Source: Escherichia phage vB_EcoD_SU57. From it: a DNA stretch of 46,150 bases. Below are positions 1-46,150 of this stretch, piece by piece (the stretch's first letter is position 1; each line of letters opens with the position of its first letter). Below the pieces are notes generated by a model. It was given only the letters and a program-made list of their open reading frames with translations. It was not told the DNA's origin and did no database searches. The stretch lies in sequence record MT511058.1. One strand, 5' to 3'. A program made the position numbers and the translations under genes.

Positions 1-124
1 CCAATCGATGAGCCATTCTTGTGATATGCGAGTAACCCACGTATACCAAGTGTCGTCACAAAAGTTAGTGGGCACTAACCTACGTTTTTACGCGAGATAT
101 ACACACGATATACATTAAAATAGC

Positions 125-180
125 TATATATATCAACCTTTTACTTTATTATTATTATTATTATTATATATATGTATACT
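125..180. repeat. AT-rich repeat block copy 1 (TATATATATCAACCTTTTACTTTATTATTATTATTATTATATATATGTATACT); near-identical copy at 26671-26727
   Basis: direct comparison of the two long non-coding regions. Confidence 0.6.
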
Positions 181-393
181 GCGTATACCGATCATTGGTG
201 AGATAATTGATATGTTCCGCGCAGATATTCTGTCACCTGTAGGAAAAGGATGACATTGTAGGAATAGATAGGCATGCATGCGGCCTGGTGGGTAAAAAAG
301 TGTATACACGGCGTACGCGCAATATACATATAGAGATGATGCGGTGCTAGAGGCGGTTTTGCGTATTAGGTTAAAAATATACAAAGAAATACT

Positions 394-423
394 TTGACTA
401 ACGCGTAAATCTGATGCAATATA
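394..423 (+). promoter_or_regulatory. candidate sigma70-type promoter (TTGACT -35, weak CAATAT -10) upstream of first early gene
   Basis: consensus-like -35 hexamer with 17 nt spacer, about 40 nt upstream of ATG 463. Confidence 0.3.
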
Positions 424-462
424 CCAATCACTGAAACGAAGTACACAACAACGAGGTGATAT

Positions 463-1005
463 ATGAATGAAGTAACGCTTGGTGAAGTAATCAGGAATAT
501 GGTAAGTAAAGCCATGGAGTCCAGCAGTGGTGAGTTTAAGGTTCCTGTAAGGGAAATATTCAAGGTGCTTAGAGGTCGGGATTATCCTGAGCTAAAGTAT
601 GATGTTGAAACTGATGAGATCATCAACCTTAAGGAGCGGTCAATTCCAGAATTGAAGAACTCATACATTTACAATACGGTATCAAGGATGCCTCAGCTAA
701 GAGTTGCAGGAAAGCATGCTAAGCACAAGATAATCTGGATTGATGATGATGGTGAGCAGACGAGTGCAAAGCAATTCGACGGTGACGGTGCAGATAAGTA
801 TCTTGTAATCCAGATCTGCGATGGTGAACATAAGAAGAGCGAGAGCGCCAGGCGAAAGAGAGATAGCGACGCTGCTGTTATTGAATCATTCAAGTCAAGA
901 CTAATGAAGGTAGTACCTAGCGTTATGGACTTAGATGGTGAGCAGAAGGTTGGCGCAGAGATTGCTATCGGTAGATTTTATGATTTGATTAAGGATGCTA
1001 AATAA
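463..1005 (+). CDS. hypothetical early protein (180 aa)
   Basis: ORF with GAGGTGA RBS; no recognisable motif. Confidence 0.6.
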   Translation: MNEVTLGEVIRNMVSKAMESSSGEFKVPVREIFKVLRGRDYPELKYDVETDEIINLKERSIPELKNSYIYNTVSRMPQLRVAGKHAKHKIIWIDDDGEQTSAKQFDGDGADKYLVIQICDGEHKKSESARRKRDSDAAVIESFKSRLMKVVPSVMDLDGEQKVGAEIAIGRFYDLIKDAK

Positions 1006-1529
1006 TGTTTGATTTCAACGAAGACAAATTGACGGATGAACAGATTATGAGTATTGCAAAGCAGGATGGAATTCCACCGCTACGGATTGCAATCAATGCA
1101 AATGGGTATCGGCATGTTCAGCACCTCTGGGGCCAGCCTGATGCATCTGGAGTCTACATAGATGAAGAGCTGGGAGTTCTGATTAAGTTGATTAGGAAAA
1201 TGGCAAGGAACGGGAGGGGAGTGGTGGGTGTCAAGTCTGTACACGAGGGCGCTCGCAAGATTAAGCCGTTCGTAGGACGCTTTGATGTCATGCGCATAAT
1301 CAAGGATGAACTAATCCCAGCACTTGATAAGATGAATCTCACATGCCTCATTGGCGATAAGATTTATGTTCATCCGGCAATCATTGATGAGTACTGGCAG
1401 CCTAACTTCAAAACTTACGAAGGTGAACATGCTAGTAGACTACCATACCACTTGCGGTACAGCGAGGAAGAGGTTGAGGTGGCCATTGAGTTCTATAGGA
1501 AAGCTAAATCACTACTGAATGGTAAATAG
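1005..1529 (+). CDS. truncated paralog of the DUF3987-like protein at 42454-44037 (shares N-terminal about 40 aa and C-terminal about 85 aa, lacks the central P-loop domain)
   Basis: N-term MFDFNEDKL...LRIAINANGYR and C-term GVVG..ARK.KPF...TCLIGDK.Y match both ends of the 527 aa protein. Confidence 0.6.
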   Translation: MFDFNEDKLTDEQIMSIAKQDGIPPLRIAINANGYRHVQHLWGQPDASGVYIDEELGVLIKLIRKMARNGRGVVGVKSVHEGARKIKPFVGRFDVMRIIKDELIPALDKMNLTCLIGDKIYVHPAIIDEYWQPNFKTYEGEHASRLPYHLRYSEEEVEVAIEFYRKAKSLLNGK

Positions 1530-3074: not shown

Positions 3075-3114
3075 CACTAATTGCTAAGCCCGCTCCGGCT
3101 GGTTTTGTTATAGT
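3071..3114 (+). promoter_or_regulatory. box ATAGCACTAATTGCTAA plus TGTTATAGT at 22 nt
   Basis: fixed phasing, extended -10 like. Confidence 0.5.
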
Positions 3115-5888: not shown

Positions 5889-6395
5889 ATGAGCAAAGCA
5901 GCATTAAAGATGGGCGAGGGAAATTTCAAGGCGCTCTACAACAAGAAGTATGGCGATATTGCTATGGTGGCAATCAACCGTAAGTACACGCCTGAGGAAG
6001 TTTTCGATTTCGCTGTTCGATACTTTTCATGGGCTGAATCTGAAGCAATTAAGGCTATTGAGACGGCTGCTTTCCAGGGTGTGGTTAGCGAAAGTCTGGT
6101 GCATAAACCTCGAGTGTTCACCTTAACCGGCCTGGCGCTCTTCATGGGTGTTAATATCAACAGGTTCGCTCGCTGGCGTACTGAGGCTGGATACTCTGAT
6201 GTGATGGAATTCATTGACAACGTAATCTACGAGCAGAAGTATCAGCTTGGCGTTGCAGGTATTATAAACTCTACAATCGTTGGTAAAGAACTTGGCATTG
6301 ATAAGCCGCAGGAGATTAAGATTAGCAACAACTCCACAGCTAACGACGTTGATAGCATGAAGGAAGCGCTGGAGTCCGTGATTAGTAAGCTATAA
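5889..6395 (+). CDS. terS: terminase small subunit (putative)
   Basis: 168 aa gene immediately upstream of terL with own promoter and RBS; call is positional. Confidence 0.55.
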   Translation: MSKAALKMGEGNFKALYNKKYGDIAMVAINRKYTPEEVFDFAVRYFSWAESEAIKAIETAAFQGVVSESLVHKPRVFTLTGLALFMGVNINRFARWRTEAGYSDVMEFIDNVIYEQKYQLGVAGIINSTIVGKELGIDKPQEIKISNNSTANDVDSMKEALESVISKL

Positions 6396-6411
6396 AAACG
6401 AGGGTATAACA

Positions 6412-7983
6412 ATGAGTGACTTAATCGTATGGGATGAACTGACATACGCAGAAAAGATGGCTATCAAGGCCATCTCTGAGCATAGTTTCGAGGGGTTCTT
6501 GCGGTGTTTCTTCCAGATAACTCAGGGCGAGAGATTCAAAATGAATTGGCATGCTAAGTACCTTTGCCGCGTCATTGATGAGATTCTTGAGGGTAAGAGA
6601 AAGGATACCATCATAAACGTAGCTCCTGGATCAGCCAAAACCGAACTGTTTAGCATCCACTTCCCTGTATATAGCATGATTAAGATTAAGAAGGTCAGGA
6701 ATCTTAGTTTGTCATTCTCTGACTCATTGGTTAAGCGCAACTCCAAGCGCGTCCGTGACCTGATTAAGTCAAAGGAGTTCCAGGAGCTTTGGCCTTGCAC
6801 CTTTGGAACGTGCAGGGATGACGAGATTCAGGTGCTGGATGAGAGTGGCAAAGTTAGGTTTGAGTCTATATCTAAGGCGATGGCAGGACAGGTGACTGGA
6901 AGCAGGGGCGGCTACATGACTGACGATTATAGTGGTTGCATAATGCTGGATGACCCACTAAAGCCTGATGACGCGTTAAGTAATGTAAGAAGAGAGGCTG
7001 TCAATATGCTTCTCAAGAACACAATTCGTTCACGTCGAGCTAGCTCAGTAAATGGAAAGGAAACGCCAATACTTTCCGTGCAGCAAAGACTTCATGTTCT
7101 GGACACTAGCCACTTCATGGAGTCAGGGCAAATGGGCATAAAGTTCGACGTAGTGAAAGTTCCAGCCATAGTCACAGAGGATTACGCCGACACGCTTCCT
7201 GATTGGATCAAACAACAATTTATTGATGATGTTCTTTCATCACCATTTGTAGAGCGGGATGGAGTTAAGTATTACAGCTACTTTCCGGCAAAGGAGTCAA
7301 TAGAAGACCTGATGGCTATGTGGGATGCTGACCCGTACACGTTCCTTAGTCAGTACCAGCAGGAACCTGTAGCTCTGGGCGGCAATCTTATTAATGTTGA
7401 TTGGTTCCAGCATCTTAGTGATACGTTCAGACCTCCAGCTAAGTACGACTATCGATTCATCACATGCGATACCGCAATGACCACTAAAAGTTACAGCGAC
7501 TTCTCTGTTCTTCAGTTGTGGGGCTATAAAGATGCTAAGATTTACCTTATTGATCAGCGCAGGGGTAAATGGGAGGCCCCAGAGTTGGAGGCTGAACTGC
7601 TGGACTTCGAGAAGAAATCAAGGGCAACCAGTCAGTCAGATGGTATCCTCAGAAAGATTATTATCGAGAAGAAAGCGTCTGGTATCGGCCTGATTCAATC
7701 AGCTGGCAGGGTTATGCGAACACCGATAGAGCCATACGTACCGGATAATGACAAGCTAACCAGGGTGATGAGTGCACTACCACAGATTAAGGCTGGTAAC
7801 GTAGTTCTTCCAGAGTCATCGCCGTGGCTAAACGGTTTGCTCACTGAGGTTGCGGCTTTTACGGCAGATGACTCGCATAAGCACGACGACCAAATTGACT
7901 GTCTAACAATGGCGGCAAACCTTGTACTTAACATCGCGGATGATCCTAAGGCGAGACTGATGCGCATAGCGGGAATGAAATAG
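6412..7983 (+). CDS. terL: terminase large subunit
   Basis: P-loop like VAPGSAKT, Walker B IMLDDP, C-terminal nuclease-type acidic residues; 523 aa. Confidence 0.85.
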   Translation: MSDLIVWDELTYAEKMAIKAISEHSFEGFLRCFFQITQGERFKMNWHAKYLCRVIDEILEGKRKDTIINVAPGSAKTELFSIHFPVYSMIKIKKVRNLSLSFSDSLVKRNSKRVRDLIKSKEFQELWPCTFGTCRDDEIQVLDESGKVRFESISKAMAGQVTGSRGGYMTDDYSGCIMLDDPLKPDDALSNVRREAVNMLLKNTIRSRRASSVNGKETPILSVQQRLHVLDTSHFMESGQMGIKFDVVKVPAIVTEDYADTLPDWIKQQFIDDVLSSPFVERDGVKYYSYFPAKESIEDLMAMWDADPYTFLSQYQQEPVALGGNLINVDWFQHLSDTFRPPAKYDYRFITCDTAMTTKSYSDFSVLQLWGYKDAKIYLIDQRRGKWEAPELEAELLDFEKKSRATSQSDGILRKIIIEKKASGIGLIQSAGRVMRTPIEPYVPDNDKLTRVMSALPQIKAGNVVLPESSPWLNGLLTEVAAFTADDSHKHDDQIDCLTMAANLVLNIADDPKARLMRIAGMK

Positions 7984-8023
7984 CACAAATTGCTAAACAC
8001 TAAAGCTACGGATGGCGTATAGT
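7980..8023 (+). promoter_or_regulatory. box ATAGCACAAATTGCTAAAC plus TATAGT at 22 nt
   Basis: box overlaps terL stop; leader GTATAGTTACTTCACACAAACGAGAGGAG identical to copy at 20020. Confidence 0.55.
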
Positions 8024-19981: not shown

Positions 19982-20025
19982 ACAGCACGAATTGCTAAAG
20001 GAGATTTAAAAAGATGGGGTATAGT
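19982..20025 (+). promoter_or_regulatory. box ACAGCACGAATTGCTAAAG plus TATAGT at 22 nt
   Basis: same leader as copy at 7980. Confidence 0.55.
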
Positions 20026-25275: not shown

Positions 25276-26238
25276 TTAGTAGAAGTTTGGGATAAATGGA
25301 AGTGCCATTGATATGTTCGTGTCGAAAGGGAACTGAGCGCCAGTCTGGGTTGAATAGTTGCCTATTACAGAACCAGGAGCAGCCCTAACTGAGCCTCCAT
25401 ACATGCAAACCCCCTTGTATCGTAAGTTGTTATACCCTCCTGTAACTCTAGTCACAGCGCCGCATCTAAGCAGCGGGAAGAATCCACCATTTATTGACTG
25501 GTATCCATTATTGATCTGAATGAATCCACCAAGAACAAATGGTCGCCTAACGCTCGAAAAAACAATCTGACCAGAGCTGTTTGACATTGTAAGTCCGGGT
25601 CCAGCTAGTGGTGGTTCATTCCTGAATATCACCAACTGAACGTAAGTACTTGCCGCAACATCATCTGTACCTCCGTAGGTTATATCCCTACACCATATTG
25701 TTGATCCATCTGATTCAAGTGATACGTTTGGATTATCCCACTTGCCGAATGGTATTCCGCTAACTGGTAGCGATGCTGCACCGTTAACCTGTATGCCCCC
25801 AACCCAGGCCGCAGACATTAGCCGCGAGTTGCTTGATATAGCAAGGAAATCAGTTGAGTTCTCAACAAGTATTCCAGGACTTGATGAGGATGAAGCCGGT
25901 AGTATCTCAAAGCAATTACCTGCAAAGTCAATTATTCGACCATTAGCACCATTGAAGTTACTGAGCGTTATCCTACCAGTGCCGTCATTTACCTTTTGAA
26001 ACCCGTTCATGTAATAAACTTCGGGTATAACATCGTAAGCGTCAACGTGGACTGCTTTCGTTGGTAGGCAGAAAGCCGTAGAGCCAGGAGACATTGTCAA
26101 TCCAAAATCCCACGAACTTGCTGGTGTTGAAAGTCCATTGGTATTTATTGATCCAGTCACAGCGGGGGCCCTTAATCCTGCCGTGATTTCCATCGCTGGC
26201 CTTCCGTCATTCAGGTCTATTAGAATACCCTGCGGCAT
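25276..26238 (-). CDS. putative receptor-binding protein (320 aa, Gly/Ser/Asn-rich)
   Basis: reverse-strand gene directly downstream of gpJ-like gene, translationally coupled to lipoprotein gene (TAATG overlap); start at ATG 26238. Confidence 0.4.
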   Translation of the reverse strand: MPQGILIDLNDGRPAMEITAGLRAPAVTGSINTNGLSTPASSWDFGLTMSPGSTAFCLPTKAVHVDAYDVIPEVYYMNGFQKVNDGTGRITLSNFNGANGRIIDFAGNCFEILPASSSSSPGILVENSTDFLAISSNSRLMSAAWVGGIQVNGAASLPVSGIPFGKWDNPNVSLESDGSTIWCRDITYGGTDDVAASTYVQLVIFRNEPPLAGPGLTMSNSSGQIVFSSVRRPFVLGGFIQINNGYQSINGGFFPLLRCGAVTRVTGGYNNLRYKGVCMYGGSVRAAPGSVIGNYSTQTGAQFPFDTNISMALPFIPNFY

Positions 26239-26483
26239 TATTTCCACTCCTTACTTCCGTGATCAGCTACTGACCCACCGTAACCGCCACCGACCTTGCT
26301 TTCAATTCCAGCGTAGCGAATATCAACCTCACCCGCCGGAACAACTACACCGCCTTTCCACTTAGACACGCACACGCCGTTTGCTTGCGTTGCACACCAA
26401 CCATCCGGGCGAGGACCTGAAGAACAGCCCACAATCATGATTGCTGCTGCTGCGATGATTGCTGATTTGATTAATTTATTCAT
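26238..26483 (-). CDS. small lipoprotein, putative superinfection-exclusion protein (Cor/Llp-like role)
   Basis: signal peptide plus lipobox IVGC, two Cys in the mature part, paired with putative RBP gene. Confidence 0.5.
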
Positions 26484-26523
26484 TTTGTATTCCTTAGTAA
26501 TTTCGTTTCGTTTCGATGGAGTA

Positions 26524-26569
26524 ATAATACAACCGTCAGTGAGGAATGTCTTTAGCTATTCGTGCTATT
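26524..26569 (-). promoter_or_regulatory. box (reverse orientation, AATAGCACGAATAGCTAAAG) with TATTAT hexamer at 23 nt
   Basis: upstream of the lipoprotein gene. Confidence 0.45.
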
Positions 26570-26670
26570 GTATACACGTAACCGATGTAACTCGATGTAT
26601 GCAATCTCATCCGCGGAAAATGATATACGCGCTGTTACGCAAATTTACGCATTGGTTACACTATAATATC

Positions 26671-26727
26671 TATATATATCAATCCTTTACTCTTATTATT
26701 ATTATTATATATATTACTATGTATATC
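26671..26727. repeat. AT-rich repeat block copy 2 (matches 125-180)
   Basis: direct sequence comparison. Confidence 0.6.
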
Positions 26728-27030
26728 ATGTAACTACTTATATAGAGTGTTCCGGTTATAATTTTAATATCATGTGGATTTATACAGTATTGCGCGGCAG
26801 CTATACCAATGCACCCTCAGCAATAAATGATATACACGATATACACACTAGTTACATTGAGCTATAGCTGGTCTGGGGTGCCAGAAAACGTAACTAGTGG
26901 CAATGCCTACACGGAATTACAAGGATTCACGCGTAAACTTGAATCAACGATTGGCGAAACCAATTGGACTGGCTACACTGCCGAATATATAGTTAACTCA
27001 TCGAAAGCAATCAACCAGAGAGATACAGAA

Positions 27031-27225
27031 ATGACCTACTACATTATCAAAGAGAAAAACAACGCACTGTTCGGCGACTGCTACTTTGGTGGCCCTGCTG
27101 GATACACCACAGATAAGAGCGAGGCCGACAGATTCGAGACTAAAGAAGAGGCCCGTGATGTACTGACCGGTTACTTCACTGAAGAAGATTTGAAGTCTGT
27201 TAAAGTAGTTAAGGTTAAGGAATAA
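27031..27225 (+). CDS. hypothetical protein (64 aa)
   Basis: internal ATG with AGAGAGA RBS and conserved TATAGTTAACTCATCGAAAG leader; upstream part of track ORF 26827 is promoter region. Confidence 0.45.
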   Translation: MTYYIIKEKNNALFGDCYFGGPAGYTTDKSEADRFETKEEARDVLTGYFTEEDLKSVKVVKVKE

Positions 27226-27228
27226 AAT

Positions 27229-27426
27229 ATGAAGGCTTTTATAGACATAAATAAGTCACCATACAACGACGAATCAGATCCAGAGGTAAGAATAAGGATA
27301 AAATTCGAAACTGGAAGAGAGATAAACATAACAACAACATGCTCTGGTATATCAAAAGCTATTATGGGATGCAGTGAAATCCCTGTAGATGTATCACTTA
27401 GAAACGTAGAGGTTAAGATAAAATGA
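27229..27426 (+). CDS. hypothetical protein (65 aa)
   Basis: ORF with AAGGAA RBS. Confidence 0.5.
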   Translation: MKAFIDINKSPYNDESDPEVRIRIKFETGREINITTTCSGISKAIMGCSEIPVDVSLRNVEVKIK

Positions 27427-28388
27427 CTTTCAGAGTTTACACACGAGAGGAACTAAGCAATGAGTCTTACCACTCCGAGACTGAACACATCTCCGGTAGC
27501 TCACTTGTTGAGATTATCCAGGGTTCTCCTGCGAAGTGGAAATTTAAGCAGCGAAATAATGATAGCAAGGCGCTTAAATTCGGAACGCTTAGTCACACGT
27601 ACATCCTGGAAGGTGACATGTTTGATAAAGAATACCTTCGAGCTACAGACCTTGACGCGATTGAAGGCTTAATTACAAGCCAGACAGGTTTAGCTTCAGC
27701 ACTTAAAAAAGTTGGTGTAGCTGGAACGTCAGGGAAGGGCTATAGCGAGCTTGTAGAGATGATGTATCGCTCCAGTGAGGATTGGCCTGTTAAATGGTTA
27801 ATTGAGCAACAAGATAGCTCTCAGGCGCTTGTGGAGGGCAAGGAGCTAGTTAGCGCATCAGATTACGACAAGGTTGTCTCGATGCGCGAGGTTCTTTGCA
27901 ACATTCCGGCATACAACGCAATAGTGAATAGTGAGACGGCGCAGAAAGAGTTATCAATCTTCGGTGAGATTCTTGGTATCGGAGTGAAGATTCGAATCGA
28001 CCACGTTGATGTTGTTGATGGTGTTGTCAAGATGACAGATTACAAAACGACCGCCGACGCAAGCCCGGAAGGATTCGGTAAGTCTGCATTCAATCACGGC
28101 TACCTTGCAAAAATGGCACTTCAGCGCGATCTGTTTGTGAAAGCATTTAACGAGAAGCGCAAGGTTGTTGTAGGATTGCTGGCGCAGGAGAAGGTGGAGC
28201 CATACCTACCAATGCTGTACACCTTGACGGATGAGCAGCTTCGAATCGGTCGCTTGCAGTATCTTGAGGCGTTGGCTACTTACAAGAAGTGCAAAGAGTT
28301 GGATATCTGGCCTGGCTACTCGAACGGCATTGCAGAGCAAGAATTGATGATTCCTGAGTGGGCTATTAAGCAGTACAAGGAAATCTAA
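27423..28388 (+). CDS. PD-(D/E)xK family exonuclease (recombination exonuclease, putative)
   Basis: RIDHVDVVDG...DYKT nuclease-like motifs; adjacent to Erf-like and SSB genes. Confidence 0.6.
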   Translation: MTFRVYTREELSNESYHSETEHISGSSLVEIIQGSPAKWKFKQRNNDSKALKFGTLSHTYILEGDMFDKEYLRATDLDAIEGLITSQTGLASALKKVGVAGTSGKGYSELVEMMYRSSEDWPVKWLIEQQDSSQALVEGKELVSASDYDKVVSMREVLCNIPAYNAIVNSETAQKELSIFGEILGIGVKIRIDHVDVVDGVVKMTDYKTTADASPEGFGKSAFNHGYLAKMALQRDLFVKAFNEKRKVVVGLLAQEKVEPYLPMLYTLTDEQLRIGRLQYLEALATYKKCKELDIWPGYSNGIAEQELMIPEWAIKQYKEI

Positions 28389-28432
28389 ATAGCACTAATC
28401 GATAAAGGCAAAATTAAAAGGTGGGGTATGAT
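28389..28432 (+). promoter_or_regulatory. box variant ATAGCACTAATCGATAAAG plus TATGAT at 22 nt
   Basis: fixed phasing; box directly follows stop of the exonuclease gene. Confidence 0.5.
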
Positions 28433-28461
28433 TACCCAATCAACAACGAACGAGGTTAAAG

Positions 28462-29112
28462 ATGAAAATTTCAGAATCATGCAAGTCAATTTTAAACGCT
28501 CTACACACCGCCAAATCGCTATTTGCGAAGGCTGAAAAATCAAAACAGAACTCACACCTCAAGAACAGATACAGCACCCTTGATGATGTTCTTGCCGCTG
28601 TAGAACCAGGCCTTGAAGAATGTGGTCTTGTAATGTTTCAGAGCGTAATTGATAGCGAAGCTACTGGACTGCTGAAGGTTGAAACGAAGTTGTTCCATGC
28701 GGAGTCAGGCGAATGGGTTAGCTTCTTAATGATTGTACCTATCAGCAAGAATGATGCTCAAGGTTACGGATCTGCGCTTACATATGCTCGACGGTATGGC
28801 ATCACAGCAGCTTTAGGACTTAGTCAGGCAGATGATGATGGCAATCTCGCAGCGAAAGGTGTTAAAGACTTTAAGCGCGAGCTTGAGAAGTGCAGCACTC
28901 TTGATGAGCTTCGTAACGTATGGAAAGAGGCTAAGCAATCACTCGACGCGGCAGGATGGAAGGTTTTCGAACCACATATCATCGAGCGTAAGGCAGAGAT
29001 TGAAGCAAATGCAGCAACTGGCTTCAACCCTGCCGCGCCTAAGAAAGTTGCAGAAAAAAGTAGTGATAAAGAAAAAATTGAAGTAGAATCACAACAAATC
29101 GACACATTCTAA
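28462..29112 (+). CDS. erf: Erf-like single-strand annealing protein
   Basis: LTYARRYG motif region typical of ERF-family recombinases; position with exonuclease and SSB. Confidence 0.65.
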   Translation: MKISESCKSILNALHTAKSLFAKAEKSKQNSHLKNRYSTLDDVLAAVEPGLEECGLVMFQSVIDSEATGLLKVETKLFHAESGEWVSFLMIVPISKNDAQGYGSALTYARRYGITAALGLSQADDDGNLAAKGVKDFKRELEKCSTLDELRNVWKEAKQSLDAAGWKVFEPHIIERKAEIEANAATGFNPAAPKKVAEKSSDKEKIEVESQQIDTF

Positions 29113-29624: not shown

Positions 29625-31958
29625 TTAACCTATTTTAGTGTAAGTCCATTGGTATGTTGCAGTGCCCTGGGCAGTTATCCCGACAGTTCTTCCACTTACA
29701 TCCATTGAAGTGAAGGCGCCAGTTTTTGTAATTGTTATTGATGATGACGTACCATCAAAAAGAACATCAGCAATTACACTATAGTTAGGCCCTGCACCAG
29801 TAACCCAGGTCGAAACCTTGTATAAACCTGCGTTGTTTGGCAACTCAAAAAGACCAGCTGAAACATTAGCCTGAACAGCCATAGCACCCTTTCCGGTGTA
29901 TACGCCGTCAGTTTTAAGTCCTAATGATGAATATGTTTGCTTATAACCGCCAACAATTATTCCACCCATTGGTTCAGTAAACCAGTTCACATTACCCTGG
30001 CTAACAACCGATACCGCAGGAGCACCACCCTTAGCTGACTGGAACCTGCCGCTTAAAATGTCAATTCTAGATGCTGAGTCCTGGGCGTAGATAGTTACAG
30101 GGTATCCACCAGTTCCAGTGTAAACCAAGCCGTCATTTCCAATGTCATCTTCTGAAGAGTCAATAATGACATGAGAAGTTCCAGATGCCTTGATGTACGA
30201 AACAACTCCACCAGAACCGCCTCCTGTTGTTCTAACTTCGTTCTTCCATGATGTTAGACCTGAAATTCTGCCGTTTGAGTTATTAAACCTAATTAGGCAA
30301 CAGTCTTGCGAACCGTTGGTGTTAATGATGTTACCCTCAACATCCATGCCTAAAATGTTTACGCTATGACTGTTAATGAAGTCAATCCCAGCCCCGCCGT
30401 AAGAGCCTGATGTTGATGATATATCACTTGCATCCATTGCACAGTTAATCATCGTAACGCTCATTACCGAACCAAACTCATAAGGTGAAACGCAACCTGA
30501 TGCATAACAAGTCTCAAGCAATATCGTAGTTCCGGTCGCCTTGATGAATCCAGTTTTGCAATTCCTGGCCCAAACATTCTGCAACTTTGTCTGGTATGTT
30601 CCAGTGGTGTCAGTGTAGCAACCCCATGCGCCATGTACCGTGCAATCCTTGATGCATGAATTTTCTAGCCCTGTAGATGATCCAACATTAGAAACGAAGT
30701 TAAATGCTATCTTTTGATCATTACCTGATGCTAGGGTAGGCGTGTCTCCTGGATTATAAAAAATGTAAAGACCTTCAATAAATATTTGATACATTCTTAT
30801 GTTTTGTGCATCACCCTGAACCAGTGCAAAAAGGTTAATGTTCCCATCAACTGAGATGAATGTTTGCGCCCTGTTTATTTGGCTTGTCCCCTCACCAATA
30901 ATTCTCGTGCTGTTGCCAATCCTTACAGTCCTGTTAATAAACATAAATCCTTTTGGTATGTATACCGTTTTGCCAGTATTAACCGCCGCCTGAAGCGCAA
31001 CTGCGTCAAGTGACTCGTTAAGGTTTGATGCAAACGGATAAACAAACCGTGCAGCCTCAATTGTCGAGAATTTAGATGATAGCGGAACTAAAGTGCCATT
31101 GTTTGTAGCACCAAAATCCATGACGTTAACAAAGTCACCAAGTTTTGATTCCACACTTCTAACTACTGATGATATATTATTCAGCTTGAAGTTAATCATT
31201 GATGAGCCGTTATCATTCTCAAGATTTTTTAGAACCCTTCCGCTGGAAAGGAGCCTCCAGCCAGTATCATCATCTATACCGCCGGTTCCTTCTGGAGTTG
31301 ATCCTTGCGGGACAACCTTAGGGAATGCTCCAGACCACACATAAACAGAAGAGTTCTCAATGTCTATGATTTGCTGAGAATCACCCTGAAGAGTAACGCC
31401 ACCTTGAAAGCTACCAACTAAAGCTCCTGAAACTGATGCTGCTGCACTCTGAGCAGTGCTTGCAGAGTTGCTTGCAGACAATGCGGAACTAGAAGCGGAA
31501 TCCTTGTCACTCGCAACCTGGGCGGCATCATTTGAAACCTGCGCACCAATTGAAATTACTTCACCATACTGCGTGTTAACCTGCGAAACCTTTGTGCTAA
31601 AGTCATTTGCATCAAAGTTTTTGAAAGCATCAACAGCATCTGAAACCTCAGTTTCACGTGACTGATAGTAACGAAGAGTTTCCGCAACATCCTGAGCTAG
31701 CCCCTGAACGGTAATTCCATCATGCGCAAGGATGGCGTAACCAGTTCCAGCAGGAACAGTTTCGGAGTTAGGGTTGTAAACATTAATCTGCGTATCGCTG
31801 ATAATTTCTGAGATGGTGTAAATCTGTACTGGTTCAGTTTTAAATACAATGGTTGCACCTACACGAATCAGTGTAAGAGGTGCTTTCCATGTTGTCCCGA
31901 CGCCAGTCACCTCACCACTTGCTGCTAGAGAAGCTGTTCCTGAGTCATAAATTGCCAT
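29625..31958 (-). CDS. lateral tail fiber / tailspike-like protein (777 aa)
   Basis: N-terminal fiber-anchor-like region and Ser/Ala-rich linker, long beta-rich C-terminal domain; start at ATG 31958 after GGAG. Confidence 0.6.
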   Translation of the reverse strand: MAIYDSGTASLAASGEVTGVGTTWKAPLTLIRVGATIVFKTEPVQIYTISEIISDTQINVYNPNSETVPAGTGYAILAHDGITVQGLAQDVAETLRYYQSRETEVSDAVDAFKNFDANDFSTKVSQVNTQYGEVISIGAQVSNDAAQVASDKDSASSSALSASNSASTAQSAAASVSGALVGSFQGGVTLQGDSQQIIDIENSSVYVWSGAFPKVVPQGSTPEGTGGIDDDTGWRLLSSGRVLKNLENDNGSSMINFKLNNISSVVRSVESKLGDFVNVMDFGATNNGTLVPLSSKFSTIEAARFVYPFASNLNESLDAVALQAAVNTGKTVYIPKGFMFINRTVRIGNSTRIIGEGTSQINRAQTFISVDGNINLFALVQGDAQNIRMYQIFIEGLYIFYNPGDTPTLASGNDQKIAFNFVSNVGSSTGLENSCIKDCTVHGAWGCYTDTTGTYQTKLQNVWARNCKTGFIKATGTTILLETCYASGCVSPYEFGSVMSVTMINCAMDASDISSTSGSYGGAGIDFINSHSVNILGMDVEGNIINTNGSQDCCLIRFNNSNGRISGLTSWKNEVRTTGGGSGGVVSYIKASGTSHVIIDSSEDDIGNDGLVYTGTGGYPVTIYAQDSASRIDILSGRFQSAKGGAPAVSVVSQGNVNWFTEPMGGIIVGGYKQTYSSLGLKTDGVYTGKGAMAVQANVSAGLFELPNNAGLYKVSTWVTGAGPNYSVIADVLFDGTSSSITITKTGAFTSMDVSGRTVGITAQGTATYQWTYTKIG

Positions 31959-31981
31959 TGTGTAGAGTCTCCATTTGTAAA

Positions 31982-32025
31982 ATAGCACGAATTGCTAAAG
32001 TGGATTGTAGCATCTTTGAGTCATA
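31982..32025 (+). promoter_or_regulatory. perfect consensus box ATAGCACGAATTGCTAAAG on + strand, pointing away from adjacent reverse-strand tail fiber gene; weak hexamer GTCATA at 22 nt
   Basis: only copy oriented against its neighbouring gene. Confidence 0.4.
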
Positions 32026-32045: not shown

Positions 32046-32969
32046 TTAGTCTAGCAATTCGCTTGCCTTGTATATTCGCTTTCTTATGCCTGACTTGAAA
32101 AAATTATCATCATTTGGCACTACCACATCAAGATCGCGATCGTCAGCAACGGCGAGTAAATCAAAAGCGTGGCGAGTGCAAGCGATGCGTAACTTGTATT
32201 TTCTAAGCGAGTAAGCAACCATTTCCATGTTGTAGCTGGAGTAGCAAACAAGCACGCAGCGGTTGCCAGTAGCAAGATGAACGCGAACACCATCAATCCA
32301 ATTATCGACAAGATAAGCGTACTCATCATTTTTAAAGGTGCCAATAACAGCAACAGACTGGCGAGTATAATCTTTTGCAGCATAACTAACATCTCCCTCC
32401 TCATTGATAAACATTACATTGCACATCTCTTCTGATATTCCGTCACTATAAGCCATAAAGCACGGAACGGCGTGGATTAATTCACCTGATTTCGTCCTGC
32501 CAACATCAAAACCGAACTCGCTATAGATACCCTCGTATGTACTGAGAGGAGTTGATTCTACTCTTTCCGTCCTTTCCATTATCTCTAAGCATCTTTCGTG
32601 GTCAATCTGAGCGCCCATTTTGTATAGCTTGGTTCTTGATGCTTGCTTGTTTGCCTTATTAACAACTTCTACTGGAATAAGGTTTAGCCACTCACCGAGA
32701 ACGTCGATACATTCACTGAATGACTCTCCTCGCATCTTCTGTAACCACAAAATTCCATCGCCTGAGCCGCACTGGTTGCAGATAATTCCACCATCACCTT
32801 CCTCGCTAACCTTGTTGGTCCACCTAGCCCTGTCGTTGCCACCGCAATAAATGCATGGTTGATGCTTCTTAGTCTGGAAGAACTTTGGGTCAGCGCCGCA
32901 GATGTTGATAAGCGCCTTATCCCACAAGCCGCGCATTCTTGGTAAAACCTCTTTCTTATCGTAGTGCAT
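32046..32969 (-). CDS. DNA primase (putative; Zn-ribbon CxxC..CxxC plus Toprim-like region)
   Basis: CIYCGGNDRARW...CNQCGSG zinc-binding motif; position next to helicase. Confidence 0.5.
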   Translation of the reverse strand: MHYDKKEVLPRMRGLWDKALINICGADPKFFQTKKHQPCIYCGGNDRARWTNKVSEEGDGGIICNQCGSGDGILWLQKMRGESFSECIDVLGEWLNLIPVEVVNKANKQASRTKLYKMGAQIDHERCLEIMERTERVESTPLSTYEGIYSEFGFDVGRTKSGELIHAVPCFMAYSDGISEEMCNVMFINEEGDVSYAAKDYTRQSVAVIGTFKNDEYAYLVDNWIDGVRVHLATGNRCVLVCYSSYNMEMVAYSLRKYKLRIACTRHAFDLLAVADDRDLDVVVPNDDNFFKSGIRKRIYKASELLD

Positions 32970-35597: not shown

Positions 35598-36017
35598 ATG
35601 AATATTACAGATAAGGTCGATTACATTGAATTTTACCCTGGCCCGGTTAAGTCATGCCCTAAGGAGGATGACGAACAAATCTTTTGCTCTGATTGGGTTA
35701 AGTATAACTACCCAGATATGGTATTTTTCCATTGCGTGAATGAGGGAAAGAAAACCATTGGTCAAGCAAGAAAAGACCAGGCTAAGGGGCTTCTAAAAGG
35801 CGTATCAGACTGTATGTTTCTTATTCCTGAATCACTTCGAGGTAAGTATCCTTTCGGGGCTATAGAGCTAAAGAGGGCTGGCAAAACTCAAGCAAGTCCA
35901 GTCAGCGAAGAACAGAAAGCATTTCTGAAAAGTGTAGTGGAATCAGGCGGTTTCTCGGCAGTCGCCTACGGACGTGAGGGTTTTCTTGCAGCATTCAAAG
36001 AAATGATTTCAAAATAG
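35598..36017 (+). CDS. VRR-NUC domain nuclease
   Basis: D...ELK PD-(D/E)xK-like core in about 140 aa protein directly after helicase. Confidence 0.65.
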   Translation: MNITDKVDYIEFYPGPVKSCPKEDDEQIFCSDWVKYNYPDMVFFHCVNEGKKTIGQARKDQAKGLLKGVSDCMFLIPESLRGKYPFGAIELKRAGKTQASPVSEEQKAFLKSVVESGGFSAVAYGREGFLAAFKEMISK

Positions 36018-36057
36018 CACGAATTGCTAAAGACGATTTTAAAATATGGGGTATAGT
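36014..36057 (+). promoter_or_regulatory. box ATAGCACGAATTGCTAAAG plus TATAGT at 22 nt
   Basis: perfect consensus; overlaps VRR-NUC stop. Confidence 0.55.
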
Positions 36058-39505: not shown

Positions 39506-40060
39506 ATGACTAAATTATTTATCCTTAATGGCCCCGCTGGAGTTGGAAAGGACACTATAGCGGATATCATGGTTGAGACTGGTGTAGCCAAAGAAAAGGT
39601 ATCATTCAAGTCACCAATGTTTAACGTTGCAAAAGGAATGCTATCAAGCGATGAATTTGATGGATTCATCAAGAATTACGACAATAGAGACTATAAGGAA
39701 TCGCCTCATGGATTTCTTGGCGGTATGACAGTTCGTGAATTTATGATTTGGATTAGCGAGTCTGTAATGAAGCCAGTCTTTGGTGATGATATTTTCGGTA
39801 AAAGGCTAGCCAAGTCACTTGGTGATGGTTGCTACATTTGCGCTGATGGTGGATTTGCTAGCGAGATTAAGCCACTGATCGACGCTGGTGTTGAGGTCAC
39901 GTTAATCAGATTGCATAGGGCAGGGTACACATTTGATGGCGATAGTCGCTCATACATTCACGGGGTGTGCGCAAGAGAAATTGATGTTCGTGTTGTTGAT
40001 TGTGATATTGATGGAACATCAGCATTGGTAAGGCACGTAATAAATAGCACGAATTGCTAA
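39506..40060 (+). CDS. P-loop kinase (nucleotide or polynucleotide kinase-like)
   Basis: Walker A GPAGVGKDT; start at ATG 39506 after GGAG; C-terminus NSTNC encoded by box. Confidence 0.55.
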   Translation: MTKLFILNGPAGVGKDTIADIMVETGVAKEKVSFKSPMFNVAKGMLSSDEFDGFIKNYDNRDYKESPHGFLGGMTVREFMIWISESVMKPVFGDDIFGKRLAKSLGDGCYICADGGFASEIKPLIDAGVEVTLIRLHRAGYTFDGDSRSYIHGVCAREIDVRVVDCDIDGTSALVRHVINSTNC

Positions 40061-40087
40061 AGATAATAATAAAAACTGAGTTATCAT
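40044..40087 (+). promoter_or_regulatory. box ATAGCACGAATTGCTAAAG plus TATCAT at 22 nt
   Basis: perfect consensus, embedded in kinase gene 3 prime end. Confidence 0.5.
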
Positions 40088-45094: not shown

Positions 45095-45139
45095 ACTATA
45101 CAACAAAAGCCCCGATTGGCTTTAGCAATTCGTGCTATT
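45095..45139 (-). promoter_or_regulatory. box (reverse, AATAGCACGAATTGCTAAAG) plus TATAGT at 22 nt
   Basis: perfect consensus, fixed phasing. Confidence 0.55.
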
Positions 45140-45911: not shown

Positions 45912-45938
45912 ATCTATACCCTCGCTGTTGATGAGTTA

Positions 45939-45984
45939 ACTATATCCTCACCAGATAGATATGTCTTTAGCAAAAAGTGCTATT
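45939..45984 (-). promoter_or_regulatory. box variant (AATAGCACTTTTTGCTAAAG, reverse) plus TATAGT at 23 nt
   Basis: outermost promoter of the reverse-strand block. Confidence 0.5.
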
Positions 45985-45990
45985 CGTTAG

Positions 45991-46110
45991 ATTTATGTAT
46001 TGTTGCAGATATTGCAATGATTCACATGATTATTGCACATATAGCAATATTGCTTCAGATGCAATGATGTTTTTTATTGTTGCGGATTGAGTAATTAAGC
46101 AATGAGTGAG
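45991..46110. repeat. array of palindromic elements (TTGCAGATATTGCAA, GCAATATTGC) and three GCAATGA words
   Basis: inverted repeats read directly; GCAATGA at 46014, 46061, 46099. Confidence 0.55.
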
Positions 46111-46150
46111 TGAATGAAAGATGGATGGACTACCATACAAGTTGATTTTA

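Follow-up and report, generated by a model that had tools for sequence, protein, structure and literature searches.

The complete genome of Escherichia phage vB_EcoD_SU57, a T1-like siphophage of the Drexlerviridae whose 46,150 bp are the window analysed here, carries in its two large non-coding gaps, region A (1-462) and region B (26484-27030, mid-genome), two paralogous copies of a cis-acting DNA module that is found throughout the Drexlerviridae. We tentatively propose, at somewhat short of an even chance, that these copies, modules A and B, are the phage's paired replication origins; binding, melting and initiation are steps that we infer from the paralogy, conservation, duplex instability, phased and inverted boxes and non-coding status of the modules and from the fold of a phage helicase. 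No origin was found in T1-like phages according to the papers on TLS and SU57 (PMC11447400, PMC7718038), and our literature search found no transcript-mapping or origin-mapping study of a T1-like phage. In the accessible literature the AT-rich blocks of the modules figure solely in a few GenBank records, as promoters predicted automatically; neither the paralogy nor the box architecture nor a link to an MCM-like helicase is reported there. The two modules and their cores, which hold a consensus site for integration host factor (IHF), are as follows.

20-330, plus strand: module A, a paralogous non-coding module in collinear alignment with module B and with the A-type loci of BEK6, Sd1, 12210I, JeanPiccard and IME542
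26565-26860, plus strand: module B, a paralogous non-coding module between the cor-like lipoprotein gene (minus strand) and the recE operon (plus strand)
125-145, plus strand: core of module A, TATATATATCAACCTTTTACT, with the IHF consensus at 131-143 and a -35-like TTTACT at 140-145
26671-26691, plus strand: core of module B, TATATATATCAATCCTTTACT, with the IHF consensus at 26677-26689 and TTTACT at 26686-26691

Alignment of the two regions revealed both a closely kept core and a more diffuse collinearity. A repeat search paired 111-145 with 26657-26691 (86% identity over 35 nt) and 137-178 with 26684-26725 (76% over 42 nt), and in a multiple alignment modules A and B were collinear over ~350 nt rather than related through a few separate blocks. 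The cores differ at two positions and share the pattern TATATATATCAAYCYTTTACT plus (TTA)n(TA)n, the tract after the core being (TTA)7 at 146-166 in A and C(TTA)5 at 26692-26707 in B. Further downstream, the counterpart of A 300-329 is B 26829-26857, and both TGTTCCG and a number of words containing TAC co-align. In a separate alignment of A-type loci, the row labelled 12210I came from wrong coordinates, is not homologous and is left out of account. Beyond a core of ~35 nt hardly any similarity is left between the two copies, and from this divergence we conclude that the core is held by selection rather than reflecting a recent duplication. The AT-rich block shared by the two regions, first reported in a first-pass annotation made from the sequence alone, was thus borne out (111-178 with 26657-26725), and it extends to relatives: in a search of a 2.3-Gb database, positions 111-187 of region A alone matched the B-type loci of Rtp, IME253, ESCO41 and others at 84-88% identity, with E values of 1e-13 to 1e-17.

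Conservation was strong within one lineage and, at the level of layout, family-wide. Across 135 phage records the B-type module has 78-94% identity, and exact copies of the core TATATATATCAAYCYTTTACT were present in 16 more modules from relatives (11 from IMG/VR and 5 from GenBank), at the A-type loci of Sd1, 12210I, IME542, BEK6 and JeanPiccard and at the B-type loci of Rtp, IME253, ESCO41, CEB_EC3a, ETEP102 and others. The exact core, and with it the IHF consensus, is a property of a single large lineage. The ATCAA core is missing from TR1, the Nouzillyvirus A locus, T1 (both loci) and TLS, which keep phased TTACGC-type boxes and/or a near-pure A+T run of 20-78 nt. The layout is present in T1 at both loci and in TLS, P818 and Klebsiella, Salmonella and Citrobacter phages at the B locus, and this architecture persists in subfamilies that are no longer alignable by sequence. 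The first-pass annotation had named a lack of conservation in relatives as grounds for giving up its suggestions, and the blocks proved to be strongly conserved. The module had no match in 5,426 E. coli genomes and 72,556 plasmids, and searches for related loci returned nothing with the DUF7174 protein as query and only close relatives with RecE.

The position of the block relative to the operon that follows is also maintained. In front of recE, six relatives (T1, TLS, P818, a Klebsiella phage, a Salmonella Tlsvirus and a Citrobacter Sertoctavirus) have a TTGACT-16-TATAAT/TATAGT promoter 275-314 nt after the beginning of the AT block; for the equivalent site of the window, TGGACT-17-TATAGT, the distance downstream of the block is 303 nt. 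This distance is kept though the intervening sequence is not conserved, and because the near-consensus proximal promoter lies so far downstream, the AT block is an element separate from the main promoter of the operon.

One explanation of the shared blocks requires no specific function: they would be low-complexity AT-rich DNA, with a recent duplication or gene conversion that linked two intergenic regions. The (TTA)n and (TA)n tracts are indeed slippage-prone simple repeats whose unit number varies among phages, but total tract length is constant while the unit numbers vary, and the flanks of A and B are near-random, yet the 35-nt core is 86-100% identical in both copies across many phages. 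Together with the retention of the architecture where sequence similarity is lost, these observations make an absence of function very improbable. As a separate observation, the exact 21-nt core pattern also occurs at 3084-3104 of an unrelated 140-kb IMG/VR contig, without a (TTA)n tract or boxes, and is probably a chance match there.

Each module consists of a run of short, helically phased boxes, a promoter-like hexamer, the core with its A+T tract, a pair of boxes in the opposite orientation and a distal cluster of boxes, followed at some distance by a proximal promoter-like site:

88-115, plus strand: upstream phased boxes of A, TTACGC, ATACAC and ATACAT at 88, 99 and 110 (spacing 11 and 11; P=0.002)
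26625-26661, plus strand: upstream phased boxes of B, ATACGC, TTACGC, TTACGC and TTACAC at 26625, 26635, 26645 and 26656 (spacing 10, 10 and 11; P=0.0003)
116-121, plus strand: -10-like TAAAAT adjoining the last box of A; TATAAT at this place in Sd1, 12210I, BEK6 and JeanPiccard
26662-26667, plus strand: -10-like TATAAT adjoining the last box of B
146-173, no strand: (TTA)7(TA)n tract of A; together with the core it is the genome's least stable duplex at 30/50 bp (124-174, z=4.9)
26692-26715, no strand: C(TTA)5(TA)n tract of B, second least stable at 30/50 bp and least stable at 80 bp (26664-26744, z=5.3)
172-186, minus strand: inverted boxes of A, ATGTAT and GCGTAT (reverse complements of ATACAT and ATACGC) at 172 and 181, spacing 9
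26719-26733, minus strand: inverted boxes of B, ATGTAT and ATGTAA at 26719 and 26728, spacing 9
300-329, plus strand: distal box cluster of A, GTGTATACAC-GG-CGTACGC-GCAA-TATACAT, the positional homologue of B 26829-26857
26829-26857, plus strand: distal box cluster of B, GATATACAC GATATACAC ... TTACAT, with boxes invariant in 10 relatives
394-425, plus strand: proximal promoter-like site of the A operon (TTGACTAACGCGTAAAT...), TTGACT at 394 with a weak -10; TTGAYnAACRCGTARAT is kept in TR1 and P818
26965-26993, plus strand: proximal sigma-70-like promoter of the B operon, TGGACT-17-TATAGT, equivalent to the TTGACT-16-TATAAT before recE in relatives

Box statistics were obtained from 3000 dinucleotide shuffles of each region with the motif WTACRY. 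Phased runs of at least three such boxes occur nowhere in the 46 kb except in regions A and B, and the layout of at least three phased boxes followed 40-90 nt on by at least two inverted boxes was found in 0 of 3000 shuffles of either region. About the AT block, and for a motif chosen post hoc, A has three plus-strand boxes upstream and two minus-strand boxes downstream and B has four and two, the distal phased clusters, which lie ~120 nt beyond the inverted boxes in each module, being additional. The phased TTAC boxes presumably resemble the tandem sites of winged-helix regulators of the OmpR/CpxR/KdpE type, a likeness on which we do not rely.

The sequence between the boxes is exceptional in its duplex stability. 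According to nearest-neighbour energies in windows of 30, 50 and 80 bp, the two AT blocks (~60 bp of near-pure A+T) are the two least stable stretches genome-wide at all three lengths, with z values of 4.5-5.3 compared to 3.4 for the next. In B-type copies, the length from TTTACT to the downstream GTATA is fixed at 22-23 nt, and the numbers of (TTA) and (TA) units vary. Both cores contain a perfect IHF consensus, WATCAANNNNTTR, as TATCAACCTTTTA at 131-143 and as TATCAATCCTTTA at 26677-26689, each preceded by TATATA. Short words in inverted orientation flank the AT block and differ by lineage: ATACA in the window and TR1, ACAAA in TLS and the Salmonella phage, and AAAC in the Klebsiella phage.

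Some of these repeats had been reported at first pass and interpreted as binding sites for DnaA. The GATATACAC repeats are present, although their details needed correction: region A has GATATACACAC-GATATACAT at 96-115 with a period of 11, region B has GATATACAC-GATATACAC at 26829-26846 with a period of 9, and GATATACAC occurs three times in the genome, always within regions A and B (0.2 expected). The reported palindromes likewise exist at other coordinates, GTGTATACAC at 300-309 instead of 303-312, and B holds only the 8-nt TGTATACA at 26569-26576. A host DnaA-dependent, oriC-like origin acting through the ATATACACA iterons would fit the match of ATATACACA to TTATNCACA at 8 of 9 positions, arithmetic that is correct, and the AT-rich stretch nearby, but this likeness to a DnaA box carries no meaning since boxes with one mismatch are not above chance: the genome contains 40 boxes with at most one mismatch compared to 51 expected, with one per region, and exact TTATNCACA boxes number 0 compared to 2.1 expected. 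Nor is there a GATC cluster, with one site in A and none in B, and primase and helicases are encoded by the phage itself. Genome-wide, GATC sites are far fewer than expected (61 compared to ~171 from dinucleotide shuffles). To our knowledge from the classical literature, host dnaA is not needed for T1 growth. We consider a DnaA-dependent origin scarcely credible.

Two further features lie within region A. Just upstream of its box array, at 66-92, a hairpin, GTTAGTGGGCACTAAC, is followed by a T run and is kept in A-type relatives; from its sequence it would be terminator-like for rightward transcripts from the packaging (pac) region. In the leader, at 225-262, two copies of GACAyyTGTAGGAA lie ~20 nt apart, with homologues in TR1, 12210I and P818, and in relatives the pair becomes a perfect palindrome, CTGACACTTGTCAG, that is operator-like in appearance.

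The proposal that modules A and B are replication origins draws also on two phage proteins:

42454-44037, minus strand: DUF3987 helicase of 527 aa, the candidate initiator, with an MCM-like AAA+ core and a C-terminal winged-helix-like domain (model pLDDT 88)
1005-1529, plus strand: ATPase-less paralogue of the helicase, 174 aa, the second gene downstream of module A

In the pathogenicity islands of Staphylococcus aureus (SaPIs), Rep proteins that are self-loading helicases, of superfamily 3 (SF3) or MCM-like superfamily 6 (SF6), recognise 5-6-nt iterons through a C-terminal winged helix, and the centre of the ori is AT-rich and flanked to left and right by at least two iterons each, which point in opposite directions (PMC9371898). 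The DUF3987 helicase has the same combination of an SF3/SF6-type AAA+ core and a C-terminal winged-helix domain. The product of 1005-1529 consists of the N-terminal 50 aa of the helicase joined to its C-terminal winged-helix-like 73 aa, with 48-51% identity to both ends (BLASTP), and was modelled by AF2 at pLDDT 77 with an H-b-H-H-b-b topology; it is a candidate box-binding regulator. As a side observation, the first 58 nt of the two genes are 79% identical in DNA and form an inverted repeat. No iteron array was found inside the replication genes.

Under the origin reading, the MCM-like self-loading helicase and/or its ATPase-less paralogue would recognise, by means of the winged-helix domain, the boxes to the left and right of the AT block. 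Bending by IHF, together with negative supercoiling from the flanking divergent promoters, may aid melting of the (TTA)n(TA)n block, after which the phage primase and the host Pol III would start synthesis; the promoter-like hexamers in the block may yield activating or priming transcripts. A more specific version, in which the modules are a cooperating origin pair, as SPP1 oriL/oriR or P4 ori/crr, opened by the self-loading helicase while the paralogue competes for the boxes and so times or limits initiation, we regard as unlikely; it would bring the helicase-initiator logic of eukaryotes and archaea into T1-like phages. The suggestion of an origin made at first pass therefore survives as the best-supported reading, by way of the phased boxes, the least stable AT stretches and the MCM-like helicase with its winged helix instead of DnaA boxes.

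The principal rival, which goes back to the suggestion at first pass of duplicated early control regions and is viable, is that each module is purely transcriptional: a distal sigma-70 immediate-early promoter for host RNAP, formed by TTTACT and its -10 partner or by the TAAAAT/TATAAT hexamer adjoining the last box, with an AT-rich UP-like/IHF region and arrays of operator boxes for a phage regulator, duplicated as the two operons are co-regulated. We judge this possible, if rather unlikely. Consistent with it, weak sigma-70-like hexamers are co-oriented with the two rightward operons that lack DR (direct repeat) elements, and the same -35/-10 pair is predicted in both copies, TTTACT-16-TATTAT in A and TTTACT-18-TATATT in B (9/12 matches); the constant 22-23 nt from TTTACT to GTATA in B-type copies would also suit a promoter. 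In TLS, the only rightward sigma-70 promoters that are predicted, P01 and P51, are at these two loci. AT-rich strong early promoters are well known in T5. Against a promoter as the sole function, the hexamers score 8.6 (A) and 9.3 (B) bits in a simple position weight matrix, and 432 sites in the genome reach 7 bits; a scan for consensus sigma-70 promoters gave counts no higher than in shuffles. The block is not needed as the operon promoter, since a proximal near-consensus site adjoins recE in six relatives, and TLS P51 is this proximal site, not the block. Moreover, TTTACT is lost in TR1, P818-A, T1 and TLS, where the AT block and the boxes stay, and the leader has no conserved RNA structure. 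The origin role and an early-promoter role are not exclusive, and both may hold.

Several observations weigh against the modules being origins. The boxes are degenerate and only 6 bp long, and both motif and layout were defined post hoc from these same sequences; plain box counts compared to local composition were 5 against 3.2 expected in A (P=0.2) and 8 against 3.8 in B (P=0.025). The IHF consensus is absent from the A and B modules of T1, the B module of TLS and the A modules of TR1 and P818, and genome-wide it is not enriched (4 sites, 3.2 expected). The symmetry of inverted flanking words fails in the modules of some relatives. P818 has GTAGAT boxes at A and TATAC boxes at B, and because its box types differ between the two loci, a single factor co-evolving with both copies is not obvious; in this phage, the boxes of the two modules were not found to covary in type. 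Neither module is adjacent to the helicase gene, from which A is ~2.2 kb away, and the intergenic DNA flanking that gene holds DR elements only. The winged-helix assignment of the paralogue comes from weak Foldseek hits (E values of at least 0.08), all of them to winged-helix proteins. Finally, the transcriptional alternative accounts for much of the same evidence: both blocks point at rightward operons without DR elements, 22 of which precede most other units, and the ETEP102 and CEB_EC3a records carry predicted promoters on the block.

The DR elements are a distinct set of signals. The window contains 22 copies of ATAGCACnnnTTGCTAAA compared to 2.15 expected, each ~20 nt upstream of a TATAGT-type -10 and carrying the inverted repeat TAGCA-N5-TGCTA, for example at 1824-1841, 7980-7997, 19982-19999, 36014-36031 and 40044-40061 on the plus strand and at 45121-45138 on the minus strand. 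Two lie beside the modules:

26551-26568, minus strand: DR element (ATAGCACGAATAGCTAAA) that serves the lipoprotein gene, outside the shared block
45966-45983, minus strand: DR element that serves the minus-strand genes left of region A

We considered and rejected the shared blocks as copies of the DR repeat (consensus aaATAGCACnnnTTGnTAAAA), as DR matches fall outside the blocks. DR repeats of 21 nt have been described for TLS, T1 and Rtp, with their function listed as open (PMC11447400). One perfect DR element, at 31982-31999 on the plus strand, is situated between the minus-strand tail fibre gene (29625-31988) and the primase gene (32046-32969), where it would, judging from its sequence and position, drive antisense or orphan transcription.

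A packaging or terminal-repeat function, also proposed at first pass, did not hold for the shared blocks. The distance between region A and the probable pac region is ~100-200 nt, and position 1 of the window falls in the same intergenic region, but the pac-like element differs from the blocks in sequence. It is a TTGC/GCAA cluster (pac-like TTGCA) at 45995-46095, with 8 words in 111 nt compared to 1.5 expected, and is homologous to bases 1-60 of the T1 record, the start of the annotated 2.8-kb terminal repeat at the physical left end; in the TR1 record the cluster falls under the note 'initial packaging site of the headful packaging mechanism'. By this homology, 45995-46095 is probably the pac region, with window coordinate 1 just after it. 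Because the cluster stands apart from the shared block and does not occur in region B, which is internal to the genome, the shared blocks are not a packaging signal, and the window has no terminal direct repeat. We therefore give packaging or terminal-repeat signals very little credence.

Comparison with known systems revealed both likenesses and differences. As in SaPIs, a candidate melting site is present, formed in the window by the two least stable stretches. In contrast, the SaPI ori is immediately downstream of rep (PMC9371898), whereas the modules are at least 2.2 kb from the helicase gene; the window further differs in having two modules, helically phased upstream boxes, an IHF consensus in its lineage, a Gram-negative host and a virulent phage. 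SPP1 has two origins ~13 kb apart, each combining direct repeats with an AT-rich unwinding element, of which oriR is in a long intergenic region with transcription signals and oriL is inside gene 38 (PMC6316719). The window shares with it two loci of the same organisation, direct repeats plus an AT-rich element. SPP1 differs in that gp38 is a separate origin-binding protein that acts with a loader and a DnaB-type helicase (PMC6316719), and it shows no sequence or protein homology to the system described here.

Promoters and IHF sites also have parallels at other early regions. In the primary origin of T7 and in T4 oriF and oriG, a promoter is followed by an AT-rich unwinding element, with phage-specific promoters or activators and no flanking box arrays; the window similarly has TAAAAT or TATAAT directly upstream of ~60 bp of A+T, where a promoter role is predicted. 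The operator/Pe region of phage Mu and lambda pL are IHF-assisted early control regions with arrays of protein sites at a divergent early region, and in the window an IHF consensus lies beside promoter-like hexamers with site arrays on either side. The window differs from these in that its IHF site overlaps the putative -35 and is lineage-specific. We know of no repressor in T1-like phages. In TLS, P01, P51 and the 21-nt DR repeats (PMC11447400) are at the same two loci, the left-end leader and upstream of recE; the AT block lies 287 nt upstream of P51, the proximal promoter, and neither the block nor the box arrays are in that paper (PMC11447400).

What were two long AT-rich gaps can now be described as copies of a defined module that is family-wide, has exact coordinates and comes with a candidate binding protein, which makes the questions of the origin and of immediate-early transcription testable by standard experiments. 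The regulatory logic of T1-like phages is listed among the open questions in recent re-annotations (PMC11447400, PMC7718038). If the origin reading is true, the MCM-like self-loading initiators of the SaPI/SCCmec type would extend to a large group of virulent enterobacterial phages, offering a handle for engineering or blocking them. If instead the modules are purely transcriptional, they would be a pair of co-regulated early promoter/operator regions, an ordinary finding that is useful for annotation. T1 belongs to the seven classical T phages, and members of the Drexlerviridae are frequent both in collections for phage therapy and as contaminants of fermentations.

The genomic setting of the two regions is similar. 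Region A is the right half of an intergenic region of ~700 bp that on the circular map comprises 45913-46150 plus 1-462. Both regions separate divergent transcription units, as the first-pass annotation had observed and as the gene map and DR elements confirm: a minus-strand DR element serves the leftward genes, and the rightward early operons, 463-1529 after A and 27031-28388 after B, have no upstream DR element. Gene content is typical of the family, with the small and large terminase genes at 5889-7983 and tail genes to ~25.2 kb; the neighbours of region B and the replication genes are as follows.

26238-26483, minus strand: cor-like lipoprotein gene, left neighbour of region B
27423-29112: RecE exonuclease and Erf, right of region B
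between 32 and 44 kb: primase, helix-turn-helix regulator and two helicases

The modules are not coding and not structured RNA. No credible small open reading frames (ORFs) were found in regions A and B. A 132-aa long form of ORF 26827-27225 was rejected, as stops interrupt the initial 68 codons in four related loci (L003, L010, L011 and L014) and its ATG is not conserved; by this comparison of sequences the true start is 27031 and region B is non-coding. The long form matches PHROG 35664 end to end, and that profile seems to be built on an over-extended annotation. An Rfam scan of the whole window matched tRNA-Arg alone, folding of the leader RNAs of both regions on both strands gave z values of +0.6 to -2.0 with no stable structure, and RNAalifold on 10 B-type leaders showed no covariation and no compensatory pairs. 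The 10-bp inverted repeat CACTAGTTAC/GTAACTAGTG (26845-26898) was likewise discarded as an RNA structure, as it shows no compensation and only its TTAC/GTAA boxes are invariant.

The records nearest to the window are Escherichia phages BEK6, Veterinaerplatzvirus T145P1 and vB_EcoS-12210I. A record of Campylobacter phage A110b (MG065688.1), together with a Pseudomonas and a Klebsiella phage record, also matches the window at ~87% identity, and such records probably represent mislabelled hosts or contaminant phages.

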